Of a stretch of DNA of 64,000 nt, positions 1,894-40,047 are shown piece by piece. Under the pieces are notes generated by a model that did no database searches, had not been told where the DNA came from, and was given only the letters and a program-made list of their open reading frames with translations. This stretch comes from Azoarcus sp. (lineage in GTDB: Bacteria > Pseudomonadota > Gammaproteobacteria > Burkholderiales > Rhodocyclaceae), in NCBI GenBank assembly GCA_031277415.1, contig JAITMK010000132.1:3977-67976 (forward strand), in the 5' to 3' direction. The number at the start of each line of letters is the position of its first letter. Position 1 is the first letter of the stretch. Made by a program: the position numbers and the translations under genes.

Positions 1894-1903
1894 GCCGGAT
1901 GCG

Positions 1904-1951: not shown

Positions 1952-1966
1952 GTGAGTTCGAGGCGG

Positions 1967-4177: not shown

Positions 4178-4329
4178 TTGTTTGGACGAAAACCGTGCTG
4201 GTGGGGCCGTGCAGACGCTGGAAACATCGGGGATGCAGGGGCTTTCGAGGAAAAACGCCCTTGCTTCTCCCCTTACGCAAGTTTTTTTGTATGAAGCTCA
4301 ATTGAAACATTTTACATAGGCAACCCATC

Positions 4330-9706: not shown

Positions 9707-9833
9707 AGGAAATCGCCTGCGTGACGAATTACCGTCACACATGCCCAACCTGTCTTTTGATGTGACATAGGTCGTTCCTCCCTTACCCCGGATCAAACAG
9801 AATCCCAAGCAACATCTTCGTAAATACAGGGCC

Positions 9834-11889: not shown

Positions 11890-11932
11890 AAACAGGAAGG
11901 CAAGAGCGCCCGACCCCACAGGAAGCCACGCC

Positions 11933-14900
11933 ATGCACAATCATGAAAACAACATGTCCGAAGCCTGGAAGACACTCTCTTTGTTGCTTCCCTGCTTCCT
12001 TCTTGCCGCGGTGCCTGCCAGCGCACAGATTCTGATCCCCTCCGTCCCGCTGAACACGGGCCAGAGCAACCCCCCGCTCGTCATGCTGGTCGCGGGTAAA
12101 GATCACAAAATGTTTTACGAAGCCTACAACGACACCTCGGATCTCGACGGCGATGGCGTGATCGATATTCGCTTCAACCCCCGGATCGTTTACTACGGAT
12201 TGTTCGACAGCAAGCTGTGCTACAAAAACAATGGAACCACCGGAAACAGCCTGAGCGACGTTTTCATCCCCGAGTCCGCCGTCACCGACATGACGCTCCA
12301 TAAATGTCGCGGAGGGCAGTGGTCAGGAAACTTTCTCAACTACGTCACCACCAGCCGCATGGACGCCTTGCGCAAAGTCCTCTATGGCGGCGAGCGCGCC
12401 ACGGACTCCGCTTCCGAAACCGTACTGCGCCGCGCCTATATCCCGCGCGATGCGCATGGATGGGGCAAGGAATACACCAGCGTACTCGTAGACGGTTACA
12501 ACATTTCCGACTACACCCCGCACCCCGTACCCACTTCGGGAAGGCGTCACTTTTTCGGCAGCTACACTCCGCTTACGAATTGCAGTACCCCTTCAACCTG
12601 CCGCTCGGCGGCCCCGGTGCTGCACGTAGCGCTCAATACCGGAAGTTCCTATCGCATATGGGACTGGTCCGGCTCCGAAGCCGGCAGCCTCTTCAGCGAC
12701 TCGGGGGTTGGAGCCACCTCCAATAAAAAATACAGGGTATTTGTTCAGGCCTGTTCCCTTGCCTTCACCCTGCCGGACGGCACGGCCAATTACCGGGGCG
12801 AAAACTGCAAACCCTATGTGGATTCCAAGGGCGTCACCGTATACCGGCCTACCGGCGTGCTGCACAAGTTCGGAGAAGACGGAACCATCCTCTTCGGACT
12901 GCTTACCGGCAGCTATGACACCAACGTTTCCGGCGGCATATTGCGCAAGACCGTTTCTTCCTTCGCCAACGAAGTCAACCCGCAAACCGGCCAATTCACC
13001 GCCAACAACACCATCGTCAAGACTTTCAACAACATCATGGTTCGCGGCTTCATGGGCAATACCATGCAGTACGTGAACTATCTCGGCGGCAACGCCTGGA
13101 TCGGTGGCCGTATCATGAACGAACGCGAATTTCCCGACTGGGGCAACCCCGTCGGCGAAATGATGTACGAGGCGCTGCGCTATCTCGGCGGCGCAGGCAC
13201 CCCGACTTCCGTTTTCCAGATCAGCACCGTTACCAACGACAATGCTGTCGGCCTGGCTCGCGCCACCTGGGACAAACCCTACAACCGCGTGCCCTGGTGC
13301 TCCCAGCCCAACATCCTCGTTCTCTCGGACATCAATCCCTCGTTCGATTCGGACCAACTGCCGGGCGCGCGGTTCCGGAGTTGCACAAAGTCGACAGCCA
13401 ATCTCACTACCACGGCAGCCTGCGTCACGGGCGCAACCGACTTCACCGGCTCTTTCGGGTCGCTCAACGTCGGAAAACTCGTCGATGAAATCGGCTCGAA
13501 AGAAGGCATCAACGGCAAGAGCTTCTTCATCGGCCAGTCCGGCTCGACAACCGACTGGGCGCCAACGGCCAAAACCGTTTCCTCCCTTTCCACCGTTCGC
13601 GGCCTTGCGCCGGAAGAACCCGGCAAAGAAGGCAGCTACAACTCCGCCGGCGTTGCGTATTACGGCAAAACCGTCGGTGTTCCCACCGTAACGGGGAAAA
13701 AAAACCAGCCTGTCGACACCTGGGTCATCGCGCTCGCTTCCCCTTTACCCAAAATCGAAGTGACCACGCCGAAAGGAACCATCACCATCGTGCCCTTCGG
13801 TAAATCCGTCGTGGGCAGTGGTTACGGCATCGACCCCGCGCGCACGCGCTTTCAGCCCGCCACCCAGATCGTCGAGTTCTACGTCACCGATCCTCCAAAG
13901 AACACGGGCCTTTACGATGCGAAATTCCTGGTCAACTACGAAGACATGGAACAGGGTGCGGATCACGACATGGATTTCATTGTCGAATATCACATCCAGC
14001 AACAAGCGAACGGAAATGTCAAAGTCATGCTCACGCCAAAATACATGGCGGCAGGCATCGTCATGAACGTCGGCTACATCGTCTCCGGCGCAGGCGCGCA
14101 GGATGGGCCTTACCTCGTCACGCAAAACATACGGCAAACTTCTACCAGCAGTTATTACTATCTCAACGTGCCGGATACGCAAGCCGCCGGATACTGCAAC
14201 AGCAACAACTCCGGATGCTATGCCCTGCCCGCTTGCACCACCGGCAACCACGGCATATGTAATCTTGGCAACATAAGCACACGAACCTTCACCCCAAGCA
14301 GCGCCGGAAATGCGGCCACCCTGCTGAAAGATCCGCTCTGGTACGCCGCCAAATGGGGCGGATTCCGCAGCAGGGCCAACGACGCCAACAACTGGCCCAA
14401 CACCCCTGCAAAATGGGATACCGACGGTGACGGCCAGCCCGACAACTACTTTTCCGTCAGAAACGCCCTCGCGCTGGAAAAGGCGTTGACCACCGCCCTC
14501 AACGCCATCCGGGAGAACACGGACAAATCTTCCGGCAAAATCTCCACGAGCAGCGACACCCTCGGTTCCTCCGACACCCTGGCCTTCAGCACCGCGCTCA
14601 GTTCTACCGTCGACCCACCCGACTGGAGCGGGGATCTCGTCGCCAAGGTCATCACCCGTGTCAACCAGGACAACCCCACCGGACTCGGCCCGGTGCGCTG
14701 GCGGGCCGCCGAACAGCTTTCCGCTGCCGCCGCGCGGCGCATCTTCACCCGCAACAACGCCAATTTGCAGGACATTTCGAGCCACGGCATACAATTCCAG
14801 TGGAATCAGCTCAATTCGGCTCAACAGGCTGCTCTCACCGGGGGGAACCAGTTCAACGGGGCTGATGTGCTCGATTACGTGCGCGGCAGCGCCAGCAAAG

Positions 14901-16423
14901 AGATTGCGAACTCCGGAAAACTCCGCACCCGCGCCAGGGCAGGCAGCGCAGCCAGCCCGCTCGGCGACAGCCCGAACAACGGCCCGCATTACTTCAAACC
15001 CACCGACACCGTTTATCTCGGCGCAAACGACGGAATGCTGCACGCATTCAATGCCGCAACGGGCAAGGAACTGTTTGCCTACATCCCTTCCGCGCTCATC
15101 CCGAAACTGCCGGAACTCGCCCGCCCCGACTACGGCCATGCCTGGTATGTCGATGGAGAAATCGCCGTTGGAACCGTTACCCAGGGAGCCGCCACAACCC
15201 ACATGCTGATCGGCGCACTTGGGCGCGGCGGGAAAGGGCTTTTCGGGCTTGACGTGACAAACCCGGCCAGTTTCTCCACCAATCACGTTGCCTGGGAACT
15301 CAATGCCCCGCCAGACGGACAATGCGGAACGAATCCGGACCACGACAACCTCGGCATCATCCTCGGCAAGCCCCTCTTTGTCACCTTGAACGACGGCAAA
15401 ACCTACGCCCTCACCGGAAACGGCTACAACAGTTGCACCGGCAAGGCCGCGCTCTACGTCATCGACATCCTGACAGGCCAGGTCGTCCGGCGCATCGACA
15501 CGCCCATTGTGGGCAACAACGGCCTCTCCACCCCGGCCGTGCTGGACACCAACGGCGATGACAAGATCGACTTCGCCTGGGCAGGGGATCTCCTCGGCAA
15601 CCTCTGGCGGTTCGATCTGAGCTCAAACTCGCCCGCAGATTGGAACGTCCGCTTCGGTTCCAGTGCCGTGCCCATGTTTACCGCAACCAGCAACACGGGC
15701 AAAGCGCAACCCATTACCGCGTCTCCGATCGCCATCCTCCTCGACAGCGGAACAGATGGCTCTCCCGCTCCTTTCGTCTTTTTCGGCACGGGCCGCTACC
15801 TCACCCTCGCCGACAGAACCGATCAGAGCGTCCAAAGCTGGTACGGGCTCATCGACGATAACGGCAGCGGAACCATTACCCGCAATCAACTGGTACGGCG
15901 CAAGTACGAGTCTTCCGGTTCCGCCGTACTCTCCAACGGAAAACAAACCTCCACTCGAACCATGCAGACACAGGGTAACGTCAACGACATGAACAACAAA
16001 CGCGGCTGGTTCATCGATTTCGACTTCAAGGGCGACGAAGGCGAACGGGTCGTCGGCGCCCCACTCGTCATCAAAACCCACCGCGGCGCAGTGGTCGTAG
16101 TCCCCTCCATCATCCCCAGCGACGATCCCTGCATGGCAGGCGGGCGAGGCTATCTCAACTACGTTTCCGCCCTCAGCGGCGCGGCAGTCGACTTCCCCTT
16201 CATCGACCTCAACGGCGACGGCATCATCGATGCGAAGGACGTGCTTGGCACAGGTTCCGTCGACCTGCAAATCGGCATGCCGGGAAATCTTGTCCTGATC
16301 AGTAGCAGCGGCGGCGGCAAGCAACTCGTCATCGGAGGTACGGAAGAAGACCTCGGCATTGACCTGGGAGGCGGATCAACCCACCGAGGACGAGTTTCCT
16401 GGCGGGAAATCATTCGGGAGTAG
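11933..16423 (+). CDS. pilY1: Type IV pilus tip adhesin PilY1/PilC
   Basis: Signal peptide; VYLGANDGMLHAF, ELFAYIP, GALGRGGKG, DTNGDDKID Ca loop, GRVSWREI C-terminus. Confidence 0.92.
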   Translation: MHNHENNMSEAWKTLSLLLPCFLLAAVPASAQILIPSVPLNTGQSNPPLVMLVAGKDHKMFYEAYNDTSDLDGDGVIDIRFNPRIVYYGLFDSKLCYKNNGTTGNSLSDVFIPESAVTDMTLHKCRGGQWSGNFLNYVTTSRMDALRKVLYGGERATDSASETVLRRAYIPRDAHGWGKEYTSVLVDGYNISDYTPHPVPTSGRRHFFGSYTPLTNCSTPSTCRSAAPVLHVALNTGSSYRIWDWSGSEAGSLFSDSGVGATSNKKYRVFVQACSLAFTLPDGTANYRGENCKPYVDSKGVTVYRPTGVLHKFGEDGTILFGLLTGSYDTNVSGGILRKTVSSFANEVNPQTGQFTANNTIVKTFNNIMVRGFMGNTMQYVNYLGGNAWIGGRIMNEREFPDWGNPVGEMMYEALRYLGGAGTPTSVFQISTVTNDNAVGLARATWDKPYNRVPWCSQPNILVLSDINPSFDSDQLPGARFRSCTKSTANLTTTAACVTGATDFTGSFGSLNVGKLVDEIGSKEGINGKSFFIGQSGSTTDWAPTAKTVSSLSTVRGLAPEEPGKEGSYNSAGVAYYGKTVGVPTVTGKKNQPVDTWVIALASPLPKIEVTTPKGTITIVPFGKSVVGSGYGIDPARTRFQPATQIVEFYVTDPPKNTGLYDAKFLVNYEDMEQGADHDMDFIVEYHIQQQANGNVKVMLTPKYMAAGIVMNVGYIVSGAGAQDGPYLVTQNIRQTSTSSYYYLNVPDTQAAGYCNSNNSGCYALPACTTGNHGICNLGNISTRTFTPSSAGNAATLLKDPLWYAAKWGGFRSRANDANNWPNTPAKWDTDGDGQPDNYFSVRNALALEKALTTALNAIRENTDKSSGKISTSSDTLGSSDTLAFSTALSSTVDPPDWSGDLVAKVITRVNQDNPTGLGPVRWRAAEQLSAAAARRIFTRNNANLQDISSHGIQFQWNQLNSAQQAALTGGNQFNGADVLDYVRGSASKEIANSGKLRTRARAGSAASPLGDSPNNGPHYFKPTDTVYLGANDGMLHAFNAATGKELFAYIPSALIPKLPELARPDYGHAWYVDGEIAVGTVTQGAATTHMLIGALGRGGKGLFGLDVTNPASFSTNHVAWELNAPPDGQCGTNPDHDNLGIILGKPLFVTLNDGKTYALTGNGYNSCTGKAALYVIDILTGQVVRRIDTPIVGNNGLSTPAVLDTNGDDKIDFAWAGDLLGNLWRFDLSSNSPADWNVRFGSSAVPMFTATSNTGKAQPITASPIAILLDSGTDGSPAPFVFFGTGRYLTLADRTDQSVQSWYGLIDDNGSGTITRNQLVRRKYESSGSAVLSNGKQTSTRTMQTQGNVNDMNNKRGWFIDFDFKGDEGERVVGAPLVIKTHRGAVVVVPSIIPSDDPCMAGGRGYLNYVSALSGAAVDFPFIDLNGDGIIDAKDVLGTGSVDLQIGMPGNLVLISSSGGGKQLVIGGTEEDLGIDLGGGSTHRGRVSWREIIRE

Positions 16424-16479
16424 CAGGCTCGTTCTCTGCATTACGAAAACAAGCTCCAAAAGGCGAGAGTAAAGGAGTT

Positions 16480-16507
16480 GCGCCGGGGAAACCCGGCGCT
16501 TTTTTTT
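16480..16507 (+). terminator. Intrinsic terminator after pilY1
   Basis: GCGCCGGG-GAAA-CCCGGCGC followed by T8. Confidence 0.85.
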
Positions 16508-16552
16508 GGATATCACGCGAACTGTTTGATGGGGTTGAAACTTCTGTCCTTT

Positions 16553-17551
16553 TCACGGCCTTGTAGGCATTCCGGGCGTATATCCCTGTTCTGATGCCTT
16601 GCGAAACCACTTCTCGGCTTCAGCATCATTCTTGGCTACACCTCGTCCATGGGCGTACATTATTCCAAGGTTATATTGACCCATCGCATTGCCTTGTTCT
16701 GCAGACCTGCGAATCCACTTCACGGCCTCGTCATAATTCTGGGGCACACCCTGTCCATTGGCATACAACCCTCCAAGATTACTTTGAGCCACCGCATTTC
16801 CCTGTTCCGCCGACATGCGGAATAGTTTTAATGCTTCAGCATAGTCCTGTGTTACCCCCCGGCCTTCGAGGTACATCCTTCCAAGATTATTCTGCGCATT
16901 TATGTCTCCCTGTTTCACGGCTTTCATGTACCACTTCACGGCCTCAGCATCATCACGCGCTACGCCCAAGCCATTGGCGTACATCATTCCAAGACTGTTC
17001 TGACCCAGCGCTTTTCCCTGTTCTGCTGACTTGCGAGTCCACTTCAATGCCTCGGCATAATTCTGTGCAACACCCCGGCCTGCGATGTACATTGTTCCAA
17101 GGTTGTTCTGACCCAATGCATTTCCCTGCTCTGCCGACTTGCGATACCACTTCACTGCTTCCGCATCATTGCACGCTACGCCCAGACATCTGTCGTACAT
17201 CCATCCAAGATTACTTTGACCCCACGCATCCCCCTGTTCCGCAGCCTTGCGGAACCATTCCAAGGCTTGCGCATTATCCTGCGCGACACCCCGGCCTGTG
17301 ATATACGCCATCCCAAGGTTATTTTGCGATTTCGCATATCCCTGTTCCGCAGCCTTGCGGAACCATTTCAGGGCTTGCGCATTATCCCGCGCAACGCCCT
17401 GGCCTTCGGCATACATCGCCCCGAGGATGTGTTGCGCGGGCACATTGCCTTGCTCTGCCGCGCGTTTGACGGCCTCGAAATCCTGCGCCTGAACCGGCAG
17501 GGTAATGCAAATTGCAAACAAACCCATGCACCAACGCAGAATCTGAAACAT
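16553..17551 (-). CDS. Exported Sel1-like repeat protein (8 repeats)
   Basis: Eight 36-aa units AEQGxAxAQxNLGxMYxxGxGVxxDxAEAxKW; AGGAGA RBS; signal peptide. Confidence 0.92.
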   Translation of the reverse strand: MFQILRWCMGLFAICITLPVQAQDFEAVKRAAEQGNVPAQHILGAMYAEGQGVARDNAQALKWFRKAAEQGYAKSQNNLGMAYITGRGVAQDNAQALEWFRKAAEQGDAWGQSNLGWMYDRCLGVACNDAEAVKWYRKSAEQGNALGQNNLGTMYIAGRGVAQNYAEALKWTRKSAEQGKALGQNSLGMMYANGLGVARDDAEAVKWYMKAVKQGDINAQNNLGRMYLEGRGVTQDYAEALKLFRMSAEQGNAVAQSNLGGLYANGQGVPQNYDEAVKWIRRSAEQGNAMGQYNLGIMYAHGRGVAKNDAEAEKWFRKASEQGYTPGMPTRP

Positions 17552-17662
17552 CTCATTTCTCCTACCTGAAGCAATTCGAAAAAACAAACATGCCTAAAGA
17601 GTATGAGAACTCCCAGCAAGCATCCTCCTGTATTTCAACCGTTCCGGAACAACCAGGGCAAC

Positions 17663-19123
17663 TCAGCGAACGTCCGAAACGCGCGCATTCACGGAGTATC
17701 GGGACGACGTACTCCCCAGAAGGAAAGCAAAACCGTAGTCTTCCAGGTAGTAATAGGAGGCGATTTCGTCGACCCTCCTTCCAACGGTATGGCATTTCAA
17801 TTCTTTTGCCCTGCCTTGAAGCTGCGGATGCAATTCTGTGGCCTGCAGGTTACGGGCGACTTTGCAAATGACTTCCGACTCCCGGTTGGATTGGTTGGTA
17901 ACGAGATCCGTGATCTTTACACGCTGCCAATACCCCAATTGGCCGTTGATGGACATATTGTCCCAGTCTCCCCGCAATTCCAGCCTGTCGGCCTGAAAAA
18001 CGTTTTGCTCCTCGGCGCTATAGAGCATCTGGCTGACAGGAACCATGCCGAGAAAACTGATCTGCTCCGTCCTGTCGTCGCCCTCCTGCCATGTGACGTG
18101 GAAAACGCCCGGTGTCGAGGTAGGTTCGATCGAGACATCCTGCTGGAAGGCCACGGGTTTGTTCGAGCGGGCTGCCGCGCTGCCGCTCAGCGGCAACCGG
18201 GTTCCTTCGATGCGCATGGAAGTAATGGATCGCACGGGCGAAACATGCCTGAGTTGTGCAAGTTGCGCGGCAATGTTCGCATCCAGATCGGGCAGGACGG
18301 AAAAATTCGGCAACCGCTTGCCGCGCGGTTCGGGAGGCAGGAGGGTCTGGGACAGGTTTTCGTTGCTGCAAATCGCCGACAGCATGGTAGCGGAATCGCC
18401 GGTAGCCTGCGGAATCCCCAGGACGGACGGATAAGTCTGTACCCCGCCGTCCGTGACCGTCTGTTGTTGATCCAGGTAATAGACATGAAGAAGGGAATAC
18501 GACTGCTTCTGGCAATCCGCCTGGTAGAACCCGGCCCGGCGGGCATATGGCGCCTTGGAAAGCCGGATATACGCGAGATAGGGATAATCGACTGCCGCCC
18601 AGAAGCGAACGCTGCCATCCGCCTGTGCTTTCAGGCTCGAAATTTCCAGTAAAAGCTGCGCCTCCGTCTTCTTGTTGTAGGCCAGTTCGCGCCAGGAGGG
18701 AGCACGCTCACAGGCTTCCTTGACTGCATCCAGCCGATGAACAGCCTTGGCGGCAGATTCGCTCAAGGCAAGCGGCGGAGCATAGAGCGAGGTTCCGCTG
18801 GTGTAATGCCTTTCCTTCCTGGCAGGGGATGTCTTTCTGTCCATAATGTCTGCATAAAGCCAGTCTGCCCTCCCGCTCGCGCAATCCACACGAAGATACA
18901 GTTCTCCGGTCGCCTTGCCCCCGGACTCCGGCAAACGCACGGCCAGAAAAACCTTTTCATCATTGCGCAGCACACTTTCCCCGATCACGTTGTTTTTTTC
19001 GGCGGCTTCTCTGACAGCCTCATCAATGTGTTTCTGATCGGTAGTCAGTTTCAGCGAGGAAGAAGGGGAACTGCACGCAAACAGGACAAAAGAGAAAGCG
19101 GCAAGCAGGTATGTTGATTTCAT
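17663..19123 (-). CDS. Lipoprotein of unknown function
   Basis: Lipobox VLFA-C at residue 17; no clear family. Confidence 0.7.
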   Translation of the reverse strand: MKSTYLLAAFSFVLFACSSPSSSLKLTTDQKHIDEAVREAAEKNNVIGESVLRNDEKVFLAVRLPESGGKATGELYLRVDCASGRADWLYADIMDRKTSPARKERHYTSGTSLYAPPLALSESAAKAVHRLDAVKEACERAPSWRELAYNKKTEAQLLLEISSLKAQADGSVRFWAAVDYPYLAYIRLSKAPYARRAGFYQADCQKQSYSLLHVYYLDQQQTVTDGGVQTYPSVLGIPQATGDSATMLSAICSNENLSQTLLPPEPRGKRLPNFSVLPDLDANIAAQLAQLRHVSPVRSITSMRIEGTRLPLSGSAAARSNKPVAFQQDVSIEPTSTPGVFHVTWQEGDDRTEQISFLGMVPVSQMLYSAEEQNVFQADRLELRGDWDNMSINGQLGYWQRVKITDLVTNQSNRESEVICKVARNLQATELHPQLQGRAKELKCHTVGRRVDEIASYYYLEDYGFAFLLGSTSSRYSVNARVSDVR

Positions 19124-19206
19124 GATGAATACACTCTCGAAAAACGCTATTGGTACATGTGCTGGTACATCGAAAAAACCTCTGCATTACCCTGCATCCA
19201 CTGCTT

Positions 19207-19281
19207 GTCATCCTGCTTGATACCGCAGGATCCATGCGGTAACTGGATTCTGCGACTTCGCTTCGCTACGCGCAGAATGAC
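19207..19281. repeat. REP/MITE-like palindromic element
   Basis: Terminal inverted repeats GTCATCCTGC...GCAGAATGAC with internal hairpins and TTCGCTTCGCT core; intergenic between divergent genes. Confidence 0.55.
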
Positions 19282-19382
19282 AGGAGGGGTTTTGCAGATG
19301 TTCCAAAAGGATTCGGTATTTTAACCTTAATCTCCCGGAACCGTCCCTTATCCACGCAAGGCAAAAAAGACCATCGGCTATC

Positions 19383-20333
<951 letters not shown>

Positions 20334-25034: not shown

Positions 25035-25110
<76 letters not shown>

Positions 25111-25122: not shown

Positions 25123-25198
25123 GTCCCCATCGTCTAGAGGCCTAGGACACCGCCCTTTCACGGCGATAACCGGGGTTCGAATCCCCGTGGGGACGCCA
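25123..25198 (+). tRNA. tRNA-Glu (TTC); probable prophage attL
   Basis: GTCCCCA/TGGGGAC acceptor, CTTTCAC loop, encoded CCA; C27-A43 mismatch. Confidence 0.95.
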
Positions 25199-26672
25199 CC
25201 TGTACCCCGCTTTTTTGCGGGCTGAAGCGGAAAGTAATTTCCGCCTCAAACGTTGTGGCGTCAAGCGTGATGCCCTCTACCATCTCGCGCAGCATGTCGG
25301 CTAAGCCCTCCGGGGCTGCGCCGCCCATGTCGCCAACAATCCCTTTGAGCATCCGTTTCACGTCCGACGCGCTTATCTCTCTTAGCACACGCGCGTTCGC
25401 GTTTTCACTCTCCATCCCTTCAAGCCTTACCTTGAGCGTTTCTCGCTCATCTTCACAGGCCTCGATCTGGCGAAGTAGCGCATCCGGCGCGCTGGTCTCT
25501 GAGAGCAAATCTACGAGGCGAGTAATTTTCTTGTCGATTTCCGCAATCCTGCGTTTAACGCTCGCGATTTCATCCGTGTTACTGCCTGCCGTTTTCGACA
25601 GCTTGCGGTAGTGCTCTGCAATGGATGAAGCCATTTCATCAGAGCGCATCTGCTCGATGACGCTCTCGACAATCACGCGCTCAATGGTGTCTGCTTGGAT
25701 TCTCGCGCCTTTTCCGATGCGGTACGTCCCGCCGTCTCCACTCCACGCGATACCCTCAGGAGAGACAAGCAGACCCGAAAGCAGATAGACGCGCTTCGCA
25801 GGTTTTCCGCCACTTCGTTTTTTCTGCTCGACCTGCGCCAGTATCGCTTCTGCCTCTTCGTCAGATATCAGCGCATCGTGTGTGTTCCTTTGGATGATCC
25901 ATTCTGCGCGTGGACGGTACTTCTGCCCTCCGACGTATCCATTGCCTGACTTTTCCGCTGTGCGGTTCCAGACAGTATGCCCAGCGTAGGTGAGCGCATT
26001 GCGCTCGATCTCTAGCAAGCTTGTGGTAGGTATGCCCGTACCTGCCAATTCCAAGGCGCGTGAGCGCTTAAATCCGCGCGCTCTGTGCATGAGGTAAGCG
26101 CGAACCTTGACGGCTTCCTCATTCGGCGCCAAGCGCGATTTCGTAACGCGCTGCCCGTCCCTTACTGCGCCGGTTTCTTCGTACTGTAGACGGTATCCTC
26201 GTGGCGCGCGACCGCCTGCCCGCCAGCCTTGTCGGATGTTTTCCGCCATACCTGATAGACCTTTCGCCTTGCTCGTCAGGCTGTGCCATTCGTCCATAGC
26301 TTGCAGGATGGACTTTAGCAGCATTTCCGTGATGGGGTCAGCGTCCGGCAGGCTCTTGTAAATAATCTTGATGCCGCGCCGGGCGCATTCGTGCTCCTCG
26401 AAGATGATGGCGAGTGCACGCCGCCGGGCAATACGTGCTGTATCCAGCACAAGGATATGATCCCATTTTCTGTCGGCTGATCGGATAGCGCGAAGCAGGG
26501 ATTGAAACCCTGGCCTATCGTCGTCCTTACCGCTCTCTACCGCATCAGCGAACTCAGCGACAATTACGATACCGCGCGCGGAAGCAAGTTCTGACAGCGC
26601 ACGCCTCTGCGCGTCTATGGAAACGTCAGAACGATCTTTTGAAGATCGGAGGTAGCTGGCCGCGCGGATCAT
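25158..26672 (-). CDS. Large serine recombinase (integrase)
   Basis: YLRSS catalytic Ser, DTARIAR, GWRAGGRAPRGY, WIIQRNTHDALIS, coiled coil; ends ASPRGFEPRLSP over the tRNA. Confidence 0.93.
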   Translation of the reverse strand: MIRAASYLRSSKDRSDVSIDAQRRALSELASARGIVIVAEFADAVESGKDDDRPGFQSLLRAIRSADRKWDHILVLDTARIARRRALAIIFEEHECARRGIKIIYKSLPDADPITEMLLKSILQAMDEWHSLTSKAKGLSGMAENIRQGWRAGGRAPRGYRLQYEETGAVRDGQRVTKSRLAPNEEAVKVRAYLMHRARGFKRSRALELAGTGIPTTSLLEIERNALTYAGHTVWNRTAEKSGNGYVGGQKYRPRAEWIIQRNTHDALISDEEAEAILAQVEQKKRSGGKPAKRVYLLSGLLVSPEGIAWSGDGGTYRIGKGARIQADTIERVIVESVIEQMRSDEMASSIAEHYRKLSKTAGSNTDEIASVKRRIAEIDKKITRLVDLLSETSAPDALLRQIEACEDERETLKVRLEGMESENANARVLREISASDVKRMLKGIVGDMGGAAPEGLADMLREMVEGITLDATTFEAEITFRFSPQKSGVQVASPRGFEPRLSP

Positions 26673-31165: not shown

Positions 31166-31200
31166 ATTTTGATGAATTAAGAGAAGTCCGTATGAACGTT
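31166..31200 (-). promoter_or_regulatory. Putative late promoter, copy 3 (tail fibre/lysis)
   Basis: AACGTTCATACGG-N16-CAAAAT. Confidence 0.65.
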
Positions 31201-34200
31201 CAGTAACTGTATTCCTGGTACCCGAACACAGGCGCAAGCGGGTTAGACGTATCTCCCTCTATCATCTTCTCTATACCCTTGTACGATCTATTGAACTGCG
31301 TTGAGGGTAGACCAAGGTAAAGGCCAAGAACTTGAACAAATGATCTCCTGAGCGCACTATCTGCTTCGCCTTGCGATACCTGGATAAGGAAATTTCCAGT
31401 GTCGCCAATGACGCGAACACCAGCAGGGCCAGAGTACCCACGTAACCCCGGAACACCTGTAATCTGACGGGTAACGAAAGATAGCTCTCGCACAACCAGA
31501 AGCGTGCCCATCGCGTATTCAAGGTTGGCGTTCAGTATGCCTCTCAAGAATTTTTCAGGATCGTCCCATTCATCACCACCGCCCGGTATGAGCGCATTCA
31601 TCACGATGTAGGTGAGTATCGCCGGTAGGATAATGATTTGCGCAACGTCCTTTGTTAGGGCCGCGTACTCTGCTGGCGTCTCAGCTAGCATGTACTTGGC
31701 TGCCAGAAGGTTGAATGTACTATTGAAGTACGATGTGAACGGAGAAAGTACCCTCATCAAACCTTTTGAGCGATGCCATGCTGATAAATCCTTTATCTGC
31801 CCGCCTGCCTGAGAATCCAGTACCGCCTGTTCTGCCTGTGCAATGGCAGAAACCTCATCAGCACCGTTTGCAAGGGCTTTAGCTTTTGCACCGTAATATG
31901 TCGGCACGTCAACGAAGCGCTGACAGAATGAGATAAACAGGAACGAGTGATTTCTTATGGATGAAATAATCCCAGGCTCGTTGCTGCGTACCGTGTTCAT
32001 GACTTCGTTTATTTCTCGCATCAGTGTGCGTGCGCGGTTTGCCATCAACAGGCTTTCGTTTGCTGCGGCACGCGCTGCATCAATCGGCCCCATTCTCATG
32101 GATTCAGCCACACCATGCACGATCCACCGTGCACCAACCCTGTTGATACTCTGAACAATCCCGGTGAATTGCAGCGCTGAGGTTGTTGCGCTATAGCCCA
32201 TCGCAGCAATACCGACGTTTCGCGGTAGCCATGCACTTACTTCCTCTCCGTACTTCATAGCAAAAGATTCACCGATGGCGACATCTTTTATCCATTCCTG
32301 GAAACGTTTGTACATTTCCGCGCCACGTGTTTCACGCACTGCATTTTTAAATTCATTTGACCGTATCACTCTATTTGCGTTATGGACGGCCTCACGGTGA
32401 GATATGTCATGAATGATTTCATTCACGCCATTGAAGAGCGTTTGAAGACTAAGCAAGATTGGACGGTCAAACACCTCATTCACGCGCGGCTTTGCAAACG
32501 TTCTTCGCGTTGTAGCGGAAGTATAGGACGCTCTTTGTTCAAGTTTTGCTGTGTCTTCTCTTTCCTGCTGCTCTGCCCTGACGCTTGCTTTCGGGTCGTA
32601 CTTAATCGGGTAGTAACCACCGCGCAAGTGGTGTGTATTGCCTTCAGAATCTGTCACCGTGATTGCCTGCGGCTCTACCCATTGCGGCTCTCTCCCAAGC
32701 ATTCTGCGCTCAAGTGCCGCAATCAGCGGACGGTAAGTTTCGATAAAATCCCATATCTTTTGAACGGCTTCGACAGCTACAGGAGGTAGGTTTTTGAACG
32801 CTTCCTGTACATGCTGTGCTGTAAAGCCGTTACCGCCTTCAATGCGCTGCAAGTTTCCTTTATTCCCAGAATTGAGCGCGATGGAAAAAATTTGCTCCAT
32901 AGTGTAGCGCTTACCATTTCCGATGCTGTACTTCGCCGAGGTGATATTTCCTATGGCCTTCTTGACTGGTTTTAATATCTCATCGAGTGATACAAACCCA
33001 TCATGGCTCATCTGCGCTTTAAGATTCCCAGCATCATTTATGGGTTTGAGGAGCAAATCCCACAGCAACCCACCGTCCACGCCGCCGTCCAGTACGCGAA
33101 CATCCGTCGACGCCTTTATCTGACGAGAAAAGAAAATATCTATAGCCTCTTTCTTTTTCCCCCATGGTGTTGCCGGTGTTTCATTTACCCTTTCTTTTCC
33201 ACGATAGTTCTCACGGATATTTGACTGCATCGCGTCGAGCGAATCCAAAAAACGCTCATCACGCTTTCCTATTGCCGTGATCTGACGTACCGCTTCGCCA
33301 ACATCCAGCGCCTCTTCCAGAGTGAGTTTGCCCCACGGCTTTCTTTCGTTTTCGTCCGTTACGATATCGGCTAAATCGAGTTGTGGGCCTTCATTGTTTT
33401 CAAGCTGTTCCAGCCAGTCAGCAAGCGTCGTACCCTCTCTCGGCATTTCACCGGCAATAAACCTGTCAATGATGCGCCAGACCTGCTCAGAGTATCCAGG
33501 AAGGAGGTGGCGCCCGCGCTTGTTGTGGTTGAGAATGTATTTGTACTCACGCTTCGCACGGTTCAGAACCCTGTTCGCCTCATTTGAGAGCATCTGGTTC
33601 AAAACCTTTGTTCTCGTGAATGCCGCCGCCGTTTCAATGTCGCCTGACCTAAGCGCCTTTTCCGCCTCGGTTGCGTTCTTCTGCGCAGTCGCAGAAAAGC
33701 GTTGCGGATTGATATCATCAATCATCATGCGCGCGATAGCGACACGCGCGTATTCACGCGCTGCCGCGTTCATGAACCGCTGGCCGCCATACGCTTTTTC
33801 GAGCGCCGAAAGTTCTGTCTGAGAGAACCGCACCATTGCATCATTGGCTATCGCCTCATCTGCCGCGCGTTCTATCGCCTGCGGGGTCGCAAGCTCGCCG
33901 TGTTGTTCAAGCATCCGCGCGTCTGCAATTTGCGCAATGGCCTGCTCCGGCGGTGTCGCTGCGGCAAGCGCGTCAACGAGTTCAGCGCCGTTGTCGAACC
34001 CGAACATCCCGGCCACGATTTCAGGATGAAGACCGTCTTTCGCGGTCATGCCGCGTTCTCTCAAATTTGCGGAAGATTCTTTCCCAAAATCATCCAGTGC
34101 GCTAATATCCAACCGGCCAGCGCCAAGAGCCTGCGGGTTAGCAACCTGCTCGCCCGCCATTATCTCTTCAAGTATTCCGTATTCGTATGCGCTCGAATAC

Positions 34201-37200
34201 TGTGGCACCCCACGCAATTCATCGAAGAACGCACTCTCGAAGTACGTATTCGAGAAACTTGGATCATCAGGCAGGTAGCCAAGTTCCGTCAGCGCTTCTT
34301 CCATCTTCGAGACGCTCAATCCGCCCTTGTTGCGGATGACGATCTTCCAGCCCTTCGGAAGTGTTGCCTTCTCTTCCGGCTTTAACCCCCACAGGCTTGC
34401 AAGCTCCTCCCGGTTCATACCGCCAAGTTTCGATATAGCCTCGAACAGCGAATCAATCGATTCATCCACCTTACCGCGTGGCGTTGCTTTGCGTTGCTGT
34501 GGCGGTTTACCAATCCTGTCCTGCGGCCTGAGTGGCGCAGTCAGAAATTGCCATGCGCGATAAACGGGCTGACTCATCACCTCGCGCCGAGCATCCATCT
34601 CAGCCTGCGCGCGCGCCTGCGTTGCTTGGCGTTGTAGCCGCTTTATCTCTCGTCCTCTGGCGTAATGCAACCATCGCATGTCGCGCAGTGCCTTTGCCTG
34701 CATTGCGTCAGTTGCAACGCCTACGGCATCAGAGAACTGCTGCAAATATTCGTCGAACTCTTCCGGAGTCATGTTGGCGAGTTCTGCGTTATCAATCAGA
34801 GGCATCGATCCTCGCGCGCGCATCACTCTATTTATTTCCGCCTCAGAAGCAATCATCCGGTCAAACACGGCTCGTACAGCAGGCGTGAGTGTGACGTTAT
34901 GCGCCTTGAGTGACTTGTAGACGGAGCGGATGAAGTTCGACAGCCGACGAAATGCACGCATCAGCGCGGAAGATGGCGCAACACCCTCATGGATGTACCG
35001 CTCAAACCCTCTTGCAAGCTTCTCATGGTGTGGCGTTTGCTCATCAACCGTCATCTGATTCCACGCATCGATGGACGGCACGCCGAACCAGTCGAGCAAT
35101 GCTTGCGTGTCTTCAATGATTCGCCGCTCGCCTGCTGTGATGTCTGCTTCAGGCTTCATCGTGAATTGCTGCGACAAGTCGGCGTAGATGCTCAGGAACA
35201 TATGCCCGAACTCGTGTATTGCTGTGGATGAATCCTGCGTCTGCGTCAGTAAGATGAGGCGTTCTTCAAAACTCGTAAATCCTCGTGGAACGTCTTGCTG
35301 GACTGACTGGTAATAGTTCTCGCCAAGCCGATTGACAAGACGGGCACGAGAGAATACTCTTCTGCTGCCGTGGGAAAACGAGCCAATGGAATTGTCCCAG
35401 TAACTCCCCATCGCCGAGACCGCCCCCGCCCTTGTGGCCGCTGCGGTCTCACTGTTTTCTGGCCTTGACCTATCTCGTACATACACAGGCGATTTAGTAT
35501 TTGCTTTAAGTAATGCGGCAAGCCTTGCTTTAAGCCTATCCCATCCGCTTTCTACTACATCTCCTGCACCATCAGTAACGTTGTGCTGTGGAGTAATTGT
35601 TCTTATCTCTCCGTTACGGATACCAACGATTATTGGCTCGCCGTTCTGCGTCATCGCGTCAATGAGAACGTTCACACCACCTTCCGGTGCCGGATAGGAA
35701 AGCAACGGATCATGAAGGAAATCTGTAAGGTTCGTCACTACTTCTGACGGTATTTCGTGCCCATGATCACGCACAATCTTCTGCCAGTACGTAGGAGAAA
35801 ATGAAATCTCACCGCTTCTTACGCCCATCTCTCTAAGAACAGCAGGTGTTTTCATGCGTACCGTCTTGCCACGGTTTAGGTCGCCAATAGCATTGCGCCA
35901 GCGCGCAATTTCCGCTTCCAGCGTAGCCTGCGCAGCTTGGCTGAACCCTTCTCCTTGAACAATTCCACGAAGAATCCTGTGACCGTACTGCGCGTAGAAC
36001 GCTTCTGTCGTCACGCCTATATTTTGTGCAATCGTGTTGAACATTGACGAAGCCAATAACGCAACGTCAGCCGACTCTTTCGCCGGTCGGCCTGCCGCCT
36101 CAAGCTGCGTTCGGATATCATCCATGATCACGACACGCTGCGCGTCGAGCGCCGCCAATCTCGCATCCTCTGCCATGGCGCGCTCTATCGTCTCTCTCGT
36201 CTCTGTGTCTGCGTCAAACGCCTCACGCTGTGCGGGCGTTGGGATGTCTGGGTTGAACGTGGTGTGGAGTCGTATTTGATCAATTATTGCACTGTTCGGC
36301 GCTACGTTATTCGCAAACTCACGAAGGGATATCTGAACATACCCGTTTTCAGCAATCGGTTCCTGTAGCTGCTGCGCGGCTTCTGGTGAGACTGCTGAAA
36401 GCTGCTCTGATAGACCTTGCTGTGCAAACGCCTCGGATGAAATATAGACGGTTTCTACTTCGCTTTCTCTTCCTACGGCTTCCACAAAATCTGCGTATGC
36501 TTTTGGATCTCTCCTGATAAGATTAATGTCTTTAGAAAGATTAATTAATTGATCTAAAAGTCGTTGATGAAGTTCAGATACCCCTCCAAGAGATTCTTTT
36601 CTCAGCAGGTTGTCGATGCTACTCATGATAGCAACATTGCCTGCACTTCCGACGATGGTTGCTACAAGCGTCTGATAGGCCGCATCCGGGCGTTCTGAAA
36701 GGTACTCTACAAGATGCTGACCAAAGCCTTTTTCAGGGTGTTGAGCAGCCCGTATAAAAACCTGACGATTAAAATCTTGAATGAGCGTGGTTACTTGCTC
36801 TTGCGGCACCTCTTTCAACATAACATTGAATGCTGTTTTTAAGACGCCTGAGCGGTTAGCAATTCCACTTAGCGCAGCCATAAATGGGGCACGCTCTAGC
36901 AATGCTTCAGGAACGCCTTGTGACAGACCGTACAATGCCGCTCTTCCGGGTGAATAGCCCGCTCTTAATCCTTCTCCGTATTCTTCACCTCCTACCATGC
37001 CGCCAAACATTACCAATGGACCCCATGATCCAGCAGAATAAGCAGGAAGCGACATTACAAACTGCGTTATAGATTCAATGCCAGAATAAATAGCAGATTC
37101 AGTTTTTCCAGGATTTCCTATTACGCGCCAATCCGTGCTCTCTGCACGATGTTTCCATGCTTCTTCGCTTCTCTCCCATACCTTGCCCGCTCTACGAAAA

Positions 37201-37745
37201 GAGTCTTTATGTCCCCCAGGAATAAGATTTAACCACGGGTCAAATATCGGCGATAGAACATTTGTCATTGCAGCAGATATCCAACCGCTAAGACCTTCTT
37301 CACCTCTTAAATATCCTCTACCGGAGGCTCTGCCAATATTACGTACAATCTCCTCTAAACCGCCTAGCATTTCAATATCGTCGTGCGCAATGGCTGCAAA
37401 ATTTGGATCTGTCATTCTCCGCTGAAGTTGCGGGTAGTTCCGCATGACACTTCTTACCGCACGCACACGATTATGGTTGACGTAGGCATCCTGGTTTCTT
37501 TCTATAACAGAGACATCTACGCCGTAAATCTTAGCAAGGTTCTGCGCTTCTGCTGCCTTGTCAGGATTGCGCGGCATCGTCCGCTCAAGATACTCCTGAA
37601 ATTGAGCCGCCTGTTGTTCTTGCTCCTGTCTATGTCTTTTTGCGAAATTCTCAAACCATTCATCTTCAGATAAACGTTTATTTACAATAGGACGGCTTGT
37701 TAAGTCTATATTGCCTTGCTCAATAATATTATCTTGGTTTTCCAT
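31200..37745 (-). CDS. Large internal virion (ejection) protein, T7 gp16-position, polyvalent
   Basis: About 2180 aa; HEFGH zincin motif; BECR/MuF-C-like segment; likely ATG 37745 overlapping upstream stop. Confidence 0.75.
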   Translation of the reverse strand: MENQDNIIEQGNIDLTSRPIVNKRLSEDEWFENFAKRHRQEQEQQAAQFQEYLERTMPRNPDKAAEAQNLAKIYGVDVSVIERNQDAYVNHNRVRAVRSVMRNYPQLQRRMTDPNFAAIAHDDIEMLGGLEEIVRNIGRASGRGYLRGEEGLSGWISAAMTNVLSPIFDPWLNLIPGGHKDSFRRAGKVWERSEEAWKHRAESTDWRVIGNPGKTESAIYSGIESITQFVMSLPAYSAGSWGPLVMFGGMVGGEEYGEGLRAGYSPGRAALYGLSQGVPEALLERAPFMAALSGIANRSGVLKTAFNVMLKEVPQEQVTTLIQDFNRQVFIRAAQHPEKGFGQHLVEYLSERPDAAYQTLVATIVGSAGNVAIMSSIDNLLRKESLGGVSELHQRLLDQLINLSKDINLIRRDPKAYADFVEAVGRESEVETVYISSEAFAQQGLSEQLSAVSPEAAQQLQEPIAENGYVQISLREFANNVAPNSAIIDQIRLHTTFNPDIPTPAQREAFDADTETRETIERAMAEDARLAALDAQRVVIMDDIRTQLEAAGRPAKESADVALLASSMFNTIAQNIGVTTEAFYAQYGHRILRGIVQGEGFSQAAQATLEAEIARWRNAIGDLNRGKTVRMKTPAVLREMGVRSGEISFSPTYWQKIVRDHGHEIPSEVVTNLTDFLHDPLLSYPAPEGGVNVLIDAMTQNGEPIIVGIRNGEIRTITPQHNVTDGAGDVVESGWDRLKARLAALLKANTKSPVYVRDRSRPENSETAAATRAGAVSAMGSYWDNSIGSFSHGSRRVFSRARLVNRLGENYYQSVQQDVPRGFTSFEERLILLTQTQDSSTAIHEFGHMFLSIYADLSQQFTMKPEADITAGERRIIEDTQALLDWFGVPSIDAWNQMTVDEQTPHHEKLARGFERYIHEGVAPSSALMRAFRRLSNFIRSVYKSLKAHNVTLTPAVRAVFDRMIASEAEINRVMRARGSMPLIDNAELANMTPEEFDEYLQQFSDAVGVATDAMQAKALRDMRWLHYARGREIKRLQRQATQARAQAEMDARREVMSQPVYRAWQFLTAPLRPQDRIGKPPQQRKATPRGKVDESIDSLFEAISKLGGMNREELASLWGLKPEEKATLPKGWKIVIRNKGGLSVSKMEEALTELGYLPDDPSFSNTYFESAFFDELRGVPQYSSAYEYGILEEIMAGEQVANPQALGAGRLDISALDDFGKESSANLRERGMTAKDGLHPEIVAGMFGFDNGAELVDALAAATPPEQAIAQIADARMLEQHGELATPQAIERAADEAIANDAMVRFSQTELSALEKAYGGQRFMNAAAREYARVAIARMMIDDINPQRFSATAQKNATEAEKALRSGDIETAAAFTRTKVLNQMLSNEANRVLNRAKREYKYILNHNKRGRHLLPGYSEQVWRIIDRFIAGEMPREGTTLADWLEQLENNEGPQLDLADIVTDENERKPWGKLTLEEALDVGEAVRQITAIGKRDERFLDSLDAMQSNIRENYRGKERVNETPATPWGKKKEAIDIFFSRQIKASTDVRVLDGGVDGGLLWDLLLKPINDAGNLKAQMSHDGFVSLDEILKPVKKAIGNITSAKYSIGNGKRYTMEQIFSIALNSGNKGNLQRIEGGNGFTAQHVQEAFKNLPPVAVEAVQKIWDFIETYRPLIAALERRMLGREPQWVEPQAITVTDSEGNTHHLRGGYYPIKYDPKASVRAEQQEREDTAKLEQRASYTSATTRRTFAKPRVNEVFDRPILLSLQTLFNGVNEIIHDISHREAVHNANRVIRSNEFKNAVRETRGAEMYKRFQEWIKDVAIGESFAMKYGEEVSAWLPRNVGIAAMGYSATTSALQFTGIVQSINRVGARWIVHGVAESMRMGPIDAARAAANESLLMANRARTLMREINEVMNTVRSNEPGIISSIRNHSFLFISFCQRFVDVPTYYGAKAKALANGADEVSAIAQAEQAVLDSQAGGQIKDLSAWHRSKGLMRVLSPFTSYFNSTFNLLAAKYMLAETPAEYAALTKDVAQIIILPAILTYIVMNALIPGGGDEWDDPEKFLRGILNANLEYAMGTLLVVRELSFVTRQITGVPGLRGYSGPAGVRVIGDTGNFLIQVSQGEADSALRRSFVQVLGLYLGLPSTQFNRSYKGIEKMIEGDTSNPLAPVFGYQEYSY

Positions 37746-40047
37746 CCCACGGCTCCGGAACTTCATCATCTGAAGGTATTCTGCCAGGTCTTTCTGGCGT
37801 TTTTATTATTGTTGCACTCATAACGTTTTTATGTTTTGTTTTATCAAGATAATCCCTATATTCTTTAGCAATATAACGCATATTTGCATTCGGGTTAATA
37901 CTTTTTATTTTCTCAACAAAGTCAATAGGAATTGAAGAAATGCGCACTTCACGACCATCATCTAGTTTAATATAAAGATTTCCTTGTTCTCCTTCAGATA
38001 TACCCTTATAAAATGAAATTTCATTATCAGGCGAAAATGTATCACGCCTCATTACTTTATCATCAACAATTCTATTTAGAATTTCATCAAGATCTTTTCC
38101 TGTCGCTGTCCGCCCATTAATTGCTTTAAATTCATAAATTTCTTCCTGTACTCTGTACATAAATTCTATGAATTCCGGCTTCTCTTTTTCATTCTTTTCA
38201 GGCTCTTCGTTAAGTATTCCAATCTTTCTTGCAGTTCTAACAACAAGATTAATATGTGACAACAATTCTATACCTTTATTATTATCTTTATTATCATTGT
38301 TATTATCTTTATTATCATTGTTTATAAGATTTGCGCGCAACTTGGTTATTTCATCAAACTTGTTTCCAAGCCTTGATTTCAGGTTCGTCATTTCTGCATC
38401 AGTCAAGCTTCTCACAACATCATGGTTGGTGATGAGATGGACGTAAATTGCAGGATCTGGATCAGTCGGTCCTTTACGTAGCGCCTCTATCTGGCTCTTT
38501 ACTGATGACCTGTCCGTCTCGTGAATAGCCTCCCTGATAGACATGGGTAGTTCGTCGAACTTAAGCCCGGTTTGCTCGGAGTATCGTATCGCTGCTGCTT
38601 TTGCTTCTTCTCGCTCTTGCTTGACAGCATCATTCTGCGCCGTGTGCCGTTCTTTTACGTATTCAATTGCCCGTTTTCGTGCACGAGATGATAGGCCAGA
38701 AGCGTCTATATGCTCGATATATCCTTCAAGCGTTGGTCTTGCTGGCCTACCTCCTCCGCTTCCGAGTAAGCGCATGTTCTTCTCAACGTAGTCTTTCGTT
38801 TGCTTCCTGTTATCAGGCGTTCTATCATCGTTATTAAGCTGCCAGAACCAGTCGGATTCCTGTGTCCCTTGTTCTGCCTTTTTAGCCTTGGATACAGCAG
38901 CGTCAACCCACTTCTCTCCAGCGTTGTACGCTGCCCATGCCTTACCGATATTCCCGCCATACTTATCGACAAGTGCGGCAAGAAGCTCACTGCCTACCCG
39001 GTTATATTCTTCCGGTGTATCGTTTTGCGCTGGCTTTATACCGTGCCCAGGTTTTTTAGCCGTATCCGGCATGACCTGCATTTTGTACATTGCGCCAACT
39101 GGTGATCGCACAGGCTGACCACCTTCAATAAAATCCCTGTTACCGCTTTCTGACTGAGCGGTAATATTAAGCACCCTATCAAAATCGTTAGGTTTATACG
39201 CTTTCTCTCTATCTGAAATAAGAGTACTACCGAAAGCAATTCCTTTTTCATCCTCAACGAAATTAGATAAGGTGATATTATCCTTTATCTTATGCTGATG
39301 CTCCATGCCGCCATTGAACTGGTTGAAGTACGCAACCGCTCCGACCAAGTCGCCTTCATCTATCATCGCATTCAGGTTGTTCGAGTGCGCAGCAGAGACA
39401 ACGCCCTTCGCCTTCCTTCTCGCCTCGTCAATGTGCATCCCTGTGATAGACGAAAACCGCTCCGCCTCTTCAATGGCGCGTCGAGAGGCAGTTTCGACCG
39501 CTTCCGGGTCATTCCTCAACGCGATGATCTCGTCCGCAGCCTGCGCGATAATCGCCTGAGAGGCGCTTGCTTTCCACTTCTGCGCCTCGTTGTGCTCATG
39601 GCGCATCGCGCCCTCTTTGAAGCGCAAGAGTTCTTTTTGCTTGAACGCCTCGAAATACGCTCGCTGTCTGTCGTTTCCGAGCCCTCTTGAAACCTCAGCA
39701 CTGAATTCATCAAGGCGCTTCGTGTATTCATCAGAGAGTGCCTTACCCTCTTTTGGCAGCGCTGCTGCACCTTGCAGTGCGCCATATCCGTCCTGGCCTA
39801 ACTGCAATTCTATGGCCTTTTGCCGCACCTCTCGCGCTGCGTCATCCAAGCGCAGATTGTCCATTTCGTCACGGCGCTCATTTTCAATCTTGAAGAGCGC
39901 ACGCCCTGCATCGGTCATCACGCCCGCAAGCTGTGCATGTTGTGCAGATGGGTCTACGGACGGTACAGCAGCATGAAACCGGTTAGCTGTAGGTTGATTC
40001 AGCCCGACTGACGGCGCGTTATCGTTATAGGTGGGTACAGTTGGCAT
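37729..40047 (-). CDS. Internal virion protein with lytic transglycosylase (SLT) domain
   Basis: MPTVPTY start typical of this family; AQSES, MQVMPDTA, AYNAGE SLT motifs. Confidence 0.8.
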   Translation of the reverse strand: MPTVPTYNDNAPSVGLNQPTANRFHAAVPSVDPSAQHAQLAGVMTDAGRALFKIENERRDEMDNLRLDDAAREVRQKAIELQLGQDGYGALQGAAALPKEGKALSDEYTKRLDEFSAEVSRGLGNDRQRAYFEAFKQKELLRFKEGAMRHEHNEAQKWKASASQAIIAQAADEIIALRNDPEAVETASRRAIEEAERFSSITGMHIDEARRKAKGVVSAAHSNNLNAMIDEGDLVGAVAYFNQFNGGMEHQHKIKDNITLSNFVEDEKGIAFGSTLISDREKAYKPNDFDRVLNITAQSESGNRDFIEGGQPVRSPVGAMYKMQVMPDTAKKPGHGIKPAQNDTPEEYNRVGSELLAALVDKYGGNIGKAWAAYNAGEKWVDAAVSKAKKAEQGTQESDWFWQLNNDDRTPDNRKQTKDYVEKNMRLLGSGGGRPARPTLEGYIEHIDASGLSSRARKRAIEYVKERHTAQNDAVKQEREEAKAAAIRYSEQTGLKFDELPMSIREAIHETDRSSVKSQIEALRKGPTDPDPAIYVHLITNHDVVRSLTDAEMTNLKSRLGNKFDEITKLRANLINNDNKDNNNDNKDNNKGIELLSHINLVVRTARKIGILNEEPEKNEKEKPEFIEFMYRVQEEIYEFKAINGRTATGKDLDEILNRIVDDKVMRRDTFSPDNEISFYKGISEGEQGNLYIKLDDGREVRISSIPIDFVEKIKSINPNANMRYIAKEYRDYLDKTKHKNVMSATIIKTPERPGRIPSDDEVPEPWDGKPR

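Follow-up and report, generated by a model that had tools for sequence, protein, structure and literature searches.

In a 64,000-nucleotide stretch of an Azoarcus sp. contig (JAITMK010000132.1, positions 3,977 to 67,976; "the window" throughout), we find a large serine integrase gene (int) whose 3′ end runs in antisense into a tRNA-Glu(UUC) gene. From sequence comparisons we conclude, with a probability that we put at about 85%, that the window contains one end, the left junction (attL), of a prophage of podovirus-like type that brings its own serine integrase, occupies the 3′ end of this tRNA gene and had the tail of its integrase swapped on integration. Comparison with relatives shows, at the level of sequence, a phage attachment site (attP) placed inside int, a target at the T-stem/acceptor junction of the tRNA, restoration of the tRNA with ~11 phage bases, and exchange of both the integrase tail and its stop codon.

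The integrase open reading frame (ORF) occupies 25158–26672 on the minus strand and encodes 504 amino acids, in the prophage state with a hybrid 3′ end; its C-terminal end is ...VQVASPRGFEPRLSP, also written ...SPQKSGVQVASPRGFEPRLSP. ARAGORN places tRNA-Glu(UUC), the integration target (attB), at 25123–25198 on the plus strand with its anticodon TTC at 25157–25159, and the host tRNA-Ala(GGC) gene upstream of it at 25035–25110 (plus strand). The two genes overlap by 41 nt (25158–25198), that is, by 12 full codons, the stop codon and 2 nt of a Val codon. The TGA of the integrase is the complement of TCA at 25158–25160, which comprises anticodon bases 35–36 and base 37. A first reading of this DNA from the letters alone (the sequence-only reading) had placed the integrase C-terminus and its TGA on the antisense strand of tRNA-Glu, and both ARAGORN and the ORF coordinates confirm it. 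The predicted crossover separates a Pro codon, whose third base is 25188, from an Arg codon, whose first base is 25187, so the host tRNA would template R-G-F-E-P-R-L-S-P and the stop codon. On this prediction the host side holds only the last nine codons and the stop (25158–25187, minus strand), which run antisense through the T arm, variable region, anticodon stem and loop of tRNA-Glu. The V-A-S-P codons over the acceptor 3′ strand and CCA would be phage DNA. Likewise, tRNA-Glu up to about 25187 would be host DNA and its last bases (TGGGGACGCCA, 25188–25198) phage-supplied, with the prophage body extending from 25188 to 64000, where it runs off the window end. The whole attL, with B arm, crossover and P′ arm, spans ~54 bp (25161–25214), as delimited by arm consensus and symmetry and by the attL/attR pair of a related element, L095.

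Homologues of the integrase fall into two classes, which correspond to two states of the gene. Class A (integrated) ends in ...ASPRGFEPR-x-x-P*, as in the window, and is found on contigs of up to 834 kb. Class B (free phage) shares the sequence to ...ASPR(G) and then continues for 13–30 more residues, for example ...ASPRGSELIPGF...VVIPHRRRA*, on phage-sized contigs; these tails mostly end in ...RRRA or ...AA. All nine class A loci with DNA past the stop codon have tRNA-Glu(UUC) in antisense and in the same register, usually adjoined by tRNA-Ala(GGC), and no tRNA was found at any of ten class B loci. Because 62 distinct homologue C-termini end as the window integrase does and the tRNA-Glu register is kept in 9/9 loci, we conclude that the entry of the ORF into the tRNA is not due to chance. 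At one class B locus, L003, int is flanked on both sides by phage genes: upstream lie ParB and early genes, and downstream those for lysis and the baseplate. The window and L003 integrases are ~70% identical, the two phage types are unrelated and the gene order around int differs: the window is podovirus-like at 26757–50431 (internal virion and tail tubular proteins), and L003 carries a Mu/P2-like baseplate set at 9789–19754. The comparison suggests that the int–attP cassette moves between phage lineages.

Matched pairs of loci locate the point of exchange. In L001 (attP) and L002 (attL), as in L077/L040 and L047/L041, the two sequences agree up to and including ...TGGCGTCCCCACGG and part at the base that follows, one member of the pair continuing into tRNA antisense (GGATTCGAACC...) and the other into phage sequence. 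It follows that the phage carries only the acceptor 3′ strand, the discriminator base, CCA and two or three T-stem bases. In all 40+ loci the free-state ORF continues across the centre of the palindrome, and no family member stops before the crossover. The claim of the sequence-only reading that attP lies within the 3′ end of int is thus strongly supported by relatives, whose free-state genes share this DNA and then take another, longer tail; no relative examined had an attP coding for an identical C-terminus. That recombination alters the stop codon and tail, as it had also claimed, is borne out by attR-type sites of relatives, in which a remnant of the tail lies beside the displaced tRNA 3′ end. 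These comparisons also bear on a different placement of the exchange, in which the phage would carry the whole 3′ half of the tRNA and cross over in the anticodon loop, leaving C-terminus and stop codon the same in phage and prophage. Tyrosine integrases that target tRNA genes commonly carry the whole 3′ half and cross over there, and the stop codon of the window integrase does sit in the anticodon loop. Free-state relatives, however, leave the tRNA sequence directly after CCCCACGG and have no tRNA, attR sites retain only TGGCGTCCCCACGG of it, and the dyad centre lies at tRNA nucleotides 65/66. We regard an anticodon-loop crossover as scarcely credible.

The free-state sites are ~50-bp imperfect palindromes centred on a palindrome of the tRNA itself, TCCCC-GT-GGGGA, which lies at 25182–25193 on the plus strand (window centre 25187–25188), comprises the T-stem 3′ strand and the acceptor 3′ strand, and would serve as the inner motif of the type bound by the recombinase domain (RD). 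The class B site of L010, for instance, reads GCCGGGGATAGA-gtgGCGTCCCCA|CGGctaggccag-TCTATCCCCGGC. In a dyad scan of 44 free-state sites, 28 have their best centre at the very boundary of CCCCA and CGG, with scores of up to 14/14; attL sites score 1–4/14 at the same centre. Aligned on this centre, the consensus arms are cGGGGA.gCGAc..ta.CCCcG for P, TGGGGACGCCA.ctTaaCCCCgg for P′ and cGGGGATTCGAACCCCtGT for B (tRNA). The inner GGGGA is common to all three arms because the tRNA itself has the palindrome. The outer CCCC lies at positions 18–21 from the centre in P and P′ and at 13–16 in the tRNA arm, that is, 5 bp closer to the centre, and the best fit of a P/P′ position-weight matrix to the tRNA arm is obtained with a shift of −5/−4. 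In the window the outer motif of the B arm is found at 25168–25177 (plus strand; AACCCCGGTT on the integrase strand) and that of the P′ arm, TACCCCGCTTTT, at 25203–25214 (plus strand), the other strand of which codes for Q-K-S-G of the integrase. In large serine recombinases (LSRs) the outer motif of attB is shifted 5 bp inward relative to attP (PMC3783163). As read from these arms, the site shows the attB/attP signature of serine integrases. Sequence identity alone would permit exchange anywhere in the 14-bp core CCGTGGGGACGCCA (25185–25198); dyad symmetry narrows the predicted crossover to the dinucleotide GT at 25187–25188 (tRNA nucleotides 65/66). The predicted central dinucleotide is GT in the window and AC, AA or AG on the integrase strand in most relatives.

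Two groups of relatives read the core differently. In L006 and L008 the core DNA TGGCGTCCCCACGGGG at the int 3′ end is read in another frame, giving …WRPHGDS… instead of …ASPRG…, and the conserved 'ASPRG' is therefore a DNA constraint imposed by the tRNA and not a protein motif. In a subgroup represented by L019 (4200–4440) and L027 (4090–4265), attP is inverted inside int and the ORF reads the tRNA sense strand (…SNPRGDATL…), with co-varying arms and the same GT centre. The int stop is followed, 9–28 nt on, by a complete tRNA-Asp(GTC) gene; it may be a phage copy by which a tRNA-Glu/tRNA-Asp operon stays expressed once the phage has inserted. The P′ arm was also considered as an intrinsic terminator for the tRNA, an idea that we dropped as a consensus scan found no terminator there.

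The other junction is known from relatives. A 'core plus P arm' pattern identified attR-type sites in genomes of Rhodocyclaceae, Accumulibacter, Methylotenera and other Betaproteobacteria. At each of them host DNA ends in TGGCGTCCCCA, after which come the P arm and what is left of the integrase tail, and int is absent upstream. Several of these sites have a terminator-like hairpin in the host flank, and at one (L103) a host dehydrogenase gene lies to the B′ side and a gene for a replication initiator to the P side. In L095 a distance of 3.5 kb separates the attR from the attL of a single decayed element, with TGGCGTCCCCACGG as the direct repeat; the two arms, P′ (AAAGCGGGGAAC) and P (GTTCCCCGCTTT), repeat each other in inverted form over 12 bp without a mismatch, both at 14 nt from the centre. 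Genes in the L095 remnant (1790–5370) resemble those for a sulfatase-modifying factor and a cation/proton antiporter, and of int only the last ~90 codons persist. On another contig (L089, positions 1155, 1720 and 3859, together with L109), two successive core-plus-P-arm remnants lie upstream of the tRNA. Judged from such remnants, the tRNA-Glu site accumulates scars.

The symmetry of attP also allowed a blind test. The P arm of L025 was predicted from its P′ arm as ...CCAATTCCCCCAA, and a search with it gave two matches, one of which agrees at 12/12 positions, is correctly oriented and lies 48 kb upstream in the 54.9-kb contig of L025 itself. The left side of this match (L111:427–457, on the same IMG/VR contig) is the 3′ end of a second int with 78% nucleotide identity, and the predicted site is therefore a junction between tandem prophages (P2′-O-P1). 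At this junction the 3′ end of the second int joins, at the core, the P arm and tail belonging to the prophage next to it, so that the integrase of one phage has the tail of another.

Within the 64-kb window we found neither a second copy of the tRNA 3′ end nor a palindromic attP, and attR of the window phage lies beyond the window, in agreement with the sequence-only reading. On the integrase strand it is predicted to comprise host DNA, TGGCGTCCCCACGG, ~12 nt, TACCCCGCTTT and an ORF remnant with a basic-Ala tail. Extension of the window through its right-end ORF led to a protein that is not on record; an exact search of viral and metagenome contigs with the P′ arm of the window phage gave no matches, and a search for the predicted P arm returned only two further attR-like sites, from other elements. 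Among public reads, only a termite-gut metagenome (~13× coverage) holds the window sequence, and its contigs break at tRNAs. In a tblastx comparison of attR right flanks with free-state downstream flanks only host genes matched, the flanks of L097 being uninformative.

The integrase itself is of the large serine recombinase type. Its N-terminal part matches the Pfam Resolvase family (PF00239, E 3e-18, residues 4–149), and the Recombinase family (PF07508) scores 22.4 bits against a cutoff of 21.1. The catalytic domains of TnpX and TP901-1 match it, XisF, Ccr and TnpX give weak matches, and a Y-x-R-S-S motif near the N-terminus is almost invariant among 60 homologues. A protein search gave 1,441 homologues at E ≤ 1e-20, the closest only 70–71% identical, and no relative above 28% identity was found in the GenBank phage collection. 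For a 71%-identical homologue, AlphaFold2 predicts a full LSR architecture (mean pLDDT 83); Foldseek aligns the model over ~570 columns with cryo-EM complexes of full-length serine integrases, phiC31 and Listeria integrases (E 2e-15), and its fold also aligns with the phiC31 crystal structure 4bqq, which covers the N-terminal domain plus RD. The model shows beta hairpins and long paired helices (341–460), as in a zinc-ribbon-like domain with coiled coil. No zinc-ribbon Pfam family matched the window integrase at E ≤ 0.01. Since C92 in the catalytic domain is the sole invariant cysteine in the alignment of 60 homologues and the window protein has two cysteines in all, a Cys4 zinc site is absent; the zinc-ribbon-like domain of this family lacks conserved cysteines, yet its predicted fold retains the hairpins and the coiled coil.

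These protein data weigh on the possibility that the prophage is dead, its integrase gene decayed or truncated, and that the ORF enters the tRNA by accidental read-through. Remnants at the same site do exist elsewhere (L095, L089 and L090). Against decay, however, the window ORF has its full length, with homologues aligning over residues 1–504, its ending recurs in 62 distinct proteins, and the prophage has all its sets of genes for structure, lysis, replication and repression, so that we consider decay very improbable.

We next consider whether the exchange of the tail has consequences for the protein. Purifying selection acts on the part of the tail distal to the P arm, as judged by pN/pS (0.37 overall and 0.13–0.21 for close pairs). 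Alanine is the terminal residue of 74 of 109 distinct free-state tails (68%; RA in 35, AA in 25 and VA in 7) and of 19% of control ORFs from the same loci, counts that are not phylogenetically independent. Free-state tails have 2.35 basic residues in their last six positions, and the basic-Ala ending recurs across divergent subgroups; prophage-state forms end in Pro in 57 of 62 cases. In the AlphaFold2 model disorder is predicted for the residues encoded by the att core (483–499 of P0003) and for the last four residues, and residues 501–508, in the distal tail, are confidently modelled as a beta strand. An effect of the swap on stability or activity is plausible given the purifying selection, the basic-Ala C-terminus and the predicted strand. 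By analogy with the proteolysis signals of the repressor and integrase of mycobacteriophage BPs and with the altered specificity of IntX of Myxococcus phage Mx8, the tail is a plausible determinant of stability or activity. Overall, the sequence features and the model leave a functional role of the swap possible, at somewhat less than even odds. A serious rival for this functional part, to which we give nearly an even chance, accepts the architecture as described and holds that the swap is functionally neutral, the overlap of attP and int reflecting genome compaction or tight linkage of enzyme and site. Neutrality would fit the disorder predicted for the core-encoded residues and the fact that the prophage form must still support excision. 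It would also fit the reading of the core DNA in another frame (WRPHGDS, L006 and L008) or the opposite orientation (L019 and L027), from which it follows that the core peptide is dictated by DNA. It is harder to reconcile with selection on the distal tail (pN/pS 0.13–0.37), with the recurrence of the basic-Ala motif in divergent subgroups and the confident beta strand, and with the absence of any family member that stops before the crossover.

On the reading that we prefer, the last part of the int ORF in this family contains an attP of ~50 bp, in which the P′ arm codes for ...K-S-G-x-x-x-A-S-P and the P arm for the next ~9 codons, followed by a distal tail of a further ~10–20 codons. The enzyme would use the tRNA palindrome TCCCC-GT-GGGGA as inner half-sites and exchange strands at or near the GT at 25187–25188. 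Integration would then restore the tRNA with 11 phage-borne bases, move the P arm and distal tail about 40–50 kb away, to attR, and fuse int to the tRNA antisense strand, from which RGFEPRLSP and a stop codon complementary to anticodon-loop bases would be read, these nine codons taking the place of the final ~20–25 codons of int; excision would restore the long form. The long form would thus be the enzyme of integration and the short form the one available for excision. The strand and basic-Ala C-terminus of the free-phage form might act as a signal for a protease or unfoldase or tune DNA-binding activity, and the prophage form would have neither. Tentatively, and as one possibility among others, we suggest that this zinc-less, uncultured family is a self-rewriting recombinase switch, in which the long form would be short-lived or tuned to integration and the prophage form possibly more stable or biased towards excision. 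If so, the long form would come back only once the phage has excised, and the physical state of the genome would be linked to when and in which direction recombination runs, with no need for a separate regulator.

Several observations weigh against our interpretation. For the window phage only attL is available; the attP/attL pairs and attR remnants come from relatives, of which the nearest are 70–71% identical, and its own attP and attR were not found. The termite-gut metagenome shows no excised form and no attP or empty-site junction assignable to the host. The crossover GT is a prediction from dyad symmetry, and some relatives have CCCC-TA-GGGG, with a palindromic central dinucleotide TA, which is unusual for serine integrases. 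The 'attR' at L090:893 is an isolated core-plus-P-arm scar and not a prophage end, because host genes lie on both sides. To these is added the shared ancestry behind the counts of C-terminal residues.

The prophage to the right of int has a podovirus-like gene content, with an Rz spanin, an endolysin, a tail fibre, internal virion proteins and tail tubular proteins, and further holds capsid, portal, terminase and replication genes. A CI-like repressor gene lies at 56750–57448, 31 kb from the integrase, and a RecT gene at 61728–62654. For the 2,189-aa product of the ORF at 31200–37769 (minus strand) the only PHROG match is phrog_9880 (function unknown, E 6e-300); it is probably an ejected internal virion protein, since its gene lies between the tail fibre gene and that of a 772-aa protein with a lytic domain. 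Tandem arrays occur in the host part of the window, at 4475–5713 and 16576–17415, with 129-nt units (7–9 copies, 61–78% alike) and 108-nt units (6 copies), and in the prophage at 60828–60989, where 27-nt units in 5 copies lie inside the ORF 60447–61172.

An int gene edited by its own integration was known from the tyrosine integrase of Mx8 and is here seen for serine integrases, in a family of more than 1,400 members, of which the GenBank phage collection contains none. The att sites are testable, as attB is a conserved ~50-bp stretch of tRNA-Glu with the tRNA palindrome at its centre and attP can be read from the integrase genes themselves; they can be used to map prophage ends in Betaproteobacteria and other metagenomic genomes, and the enzymes are candidate orthogonal recombinases. 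For annotation, the C-terminus of integrases of this family depends on the state of the genome. Should the tail swap change how stable or active the enzyme is, serine integrases would have a new means of controlling directionality or lysogeny. In the open-access papers and preprints searched we found no report of a serine integrase with attP in its own ORF, which is not proof of absence.

Three known systems offer comparisons outside the serine integrases, Mx8 being the closest. Phage Mx8 reportedly integrates into a tRNA gene. Its attP lies within int, and integration gives the gene a new 3′ end and the protein a changed C-terminus (IntP to IntX), the resulting enzyme being active with modified specificity (PMC6070905). 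The window family resembles Mx8 in that the attP core lies within the int ORF and integration provides int with a new 3′ end and C-terminus, as shown in relatives. Unlike Mx8, which has a tyrosine recombinase, the window enzyme is an LSR with a short palindromic attP and a predicted 2-bp crossover; only ~11 nt of the tRNA are phage-carried, the new tail is tRNA antisense, and a large metagenomic family is involved rather than a single phage. Because its catalytic domain is of the serine-recombinase type, the window integrase is an analogue of the Mx8 type and not a member of it. In Sulfolobus virus SSV1 an archaeal tyrosine integrase is said to have attP within int and to integrate into a tRNA gene, which splits int into two large fragments. 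SSV1 and the window thus have in common an attP within int and a tRNA target, but the SSV1 gene is split in two whereas the window gene swaps a short tail. In mycobacteriophage BPs, attP lies in the repressor gene and integration removes a C-terminal extension with an ssrA-like degradation tag; the BPs integrase has a C-terminal proteolysis signal too (PMC4557955). As in BPs, attP is here inside a phage ORF and integration removes a C-terminal extension. The tails lost in the window family mostly end in ...RRRA or ...AA; the interrupted gene, however, is int and not the repressor gene, and the BPs integrase is a tyrosine recombinase. Among serine enzymes, the predicted order of catalytic domain, recombinase domain, zinc-ribbon-like domain and coiled coil is that of the LSRs of Listeria A118/LI, phiC31, Bxb1 and SPbeta, and the dyad symmetry of attP and the attB outer motif 5 bp inward are likewise those of characterised LSRs. 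The window integrase departs from them in its sequence identity of below 30%, its lack of conserved zinc-binding cysteines, its tRNA target and an attP that lies in its own ORF.

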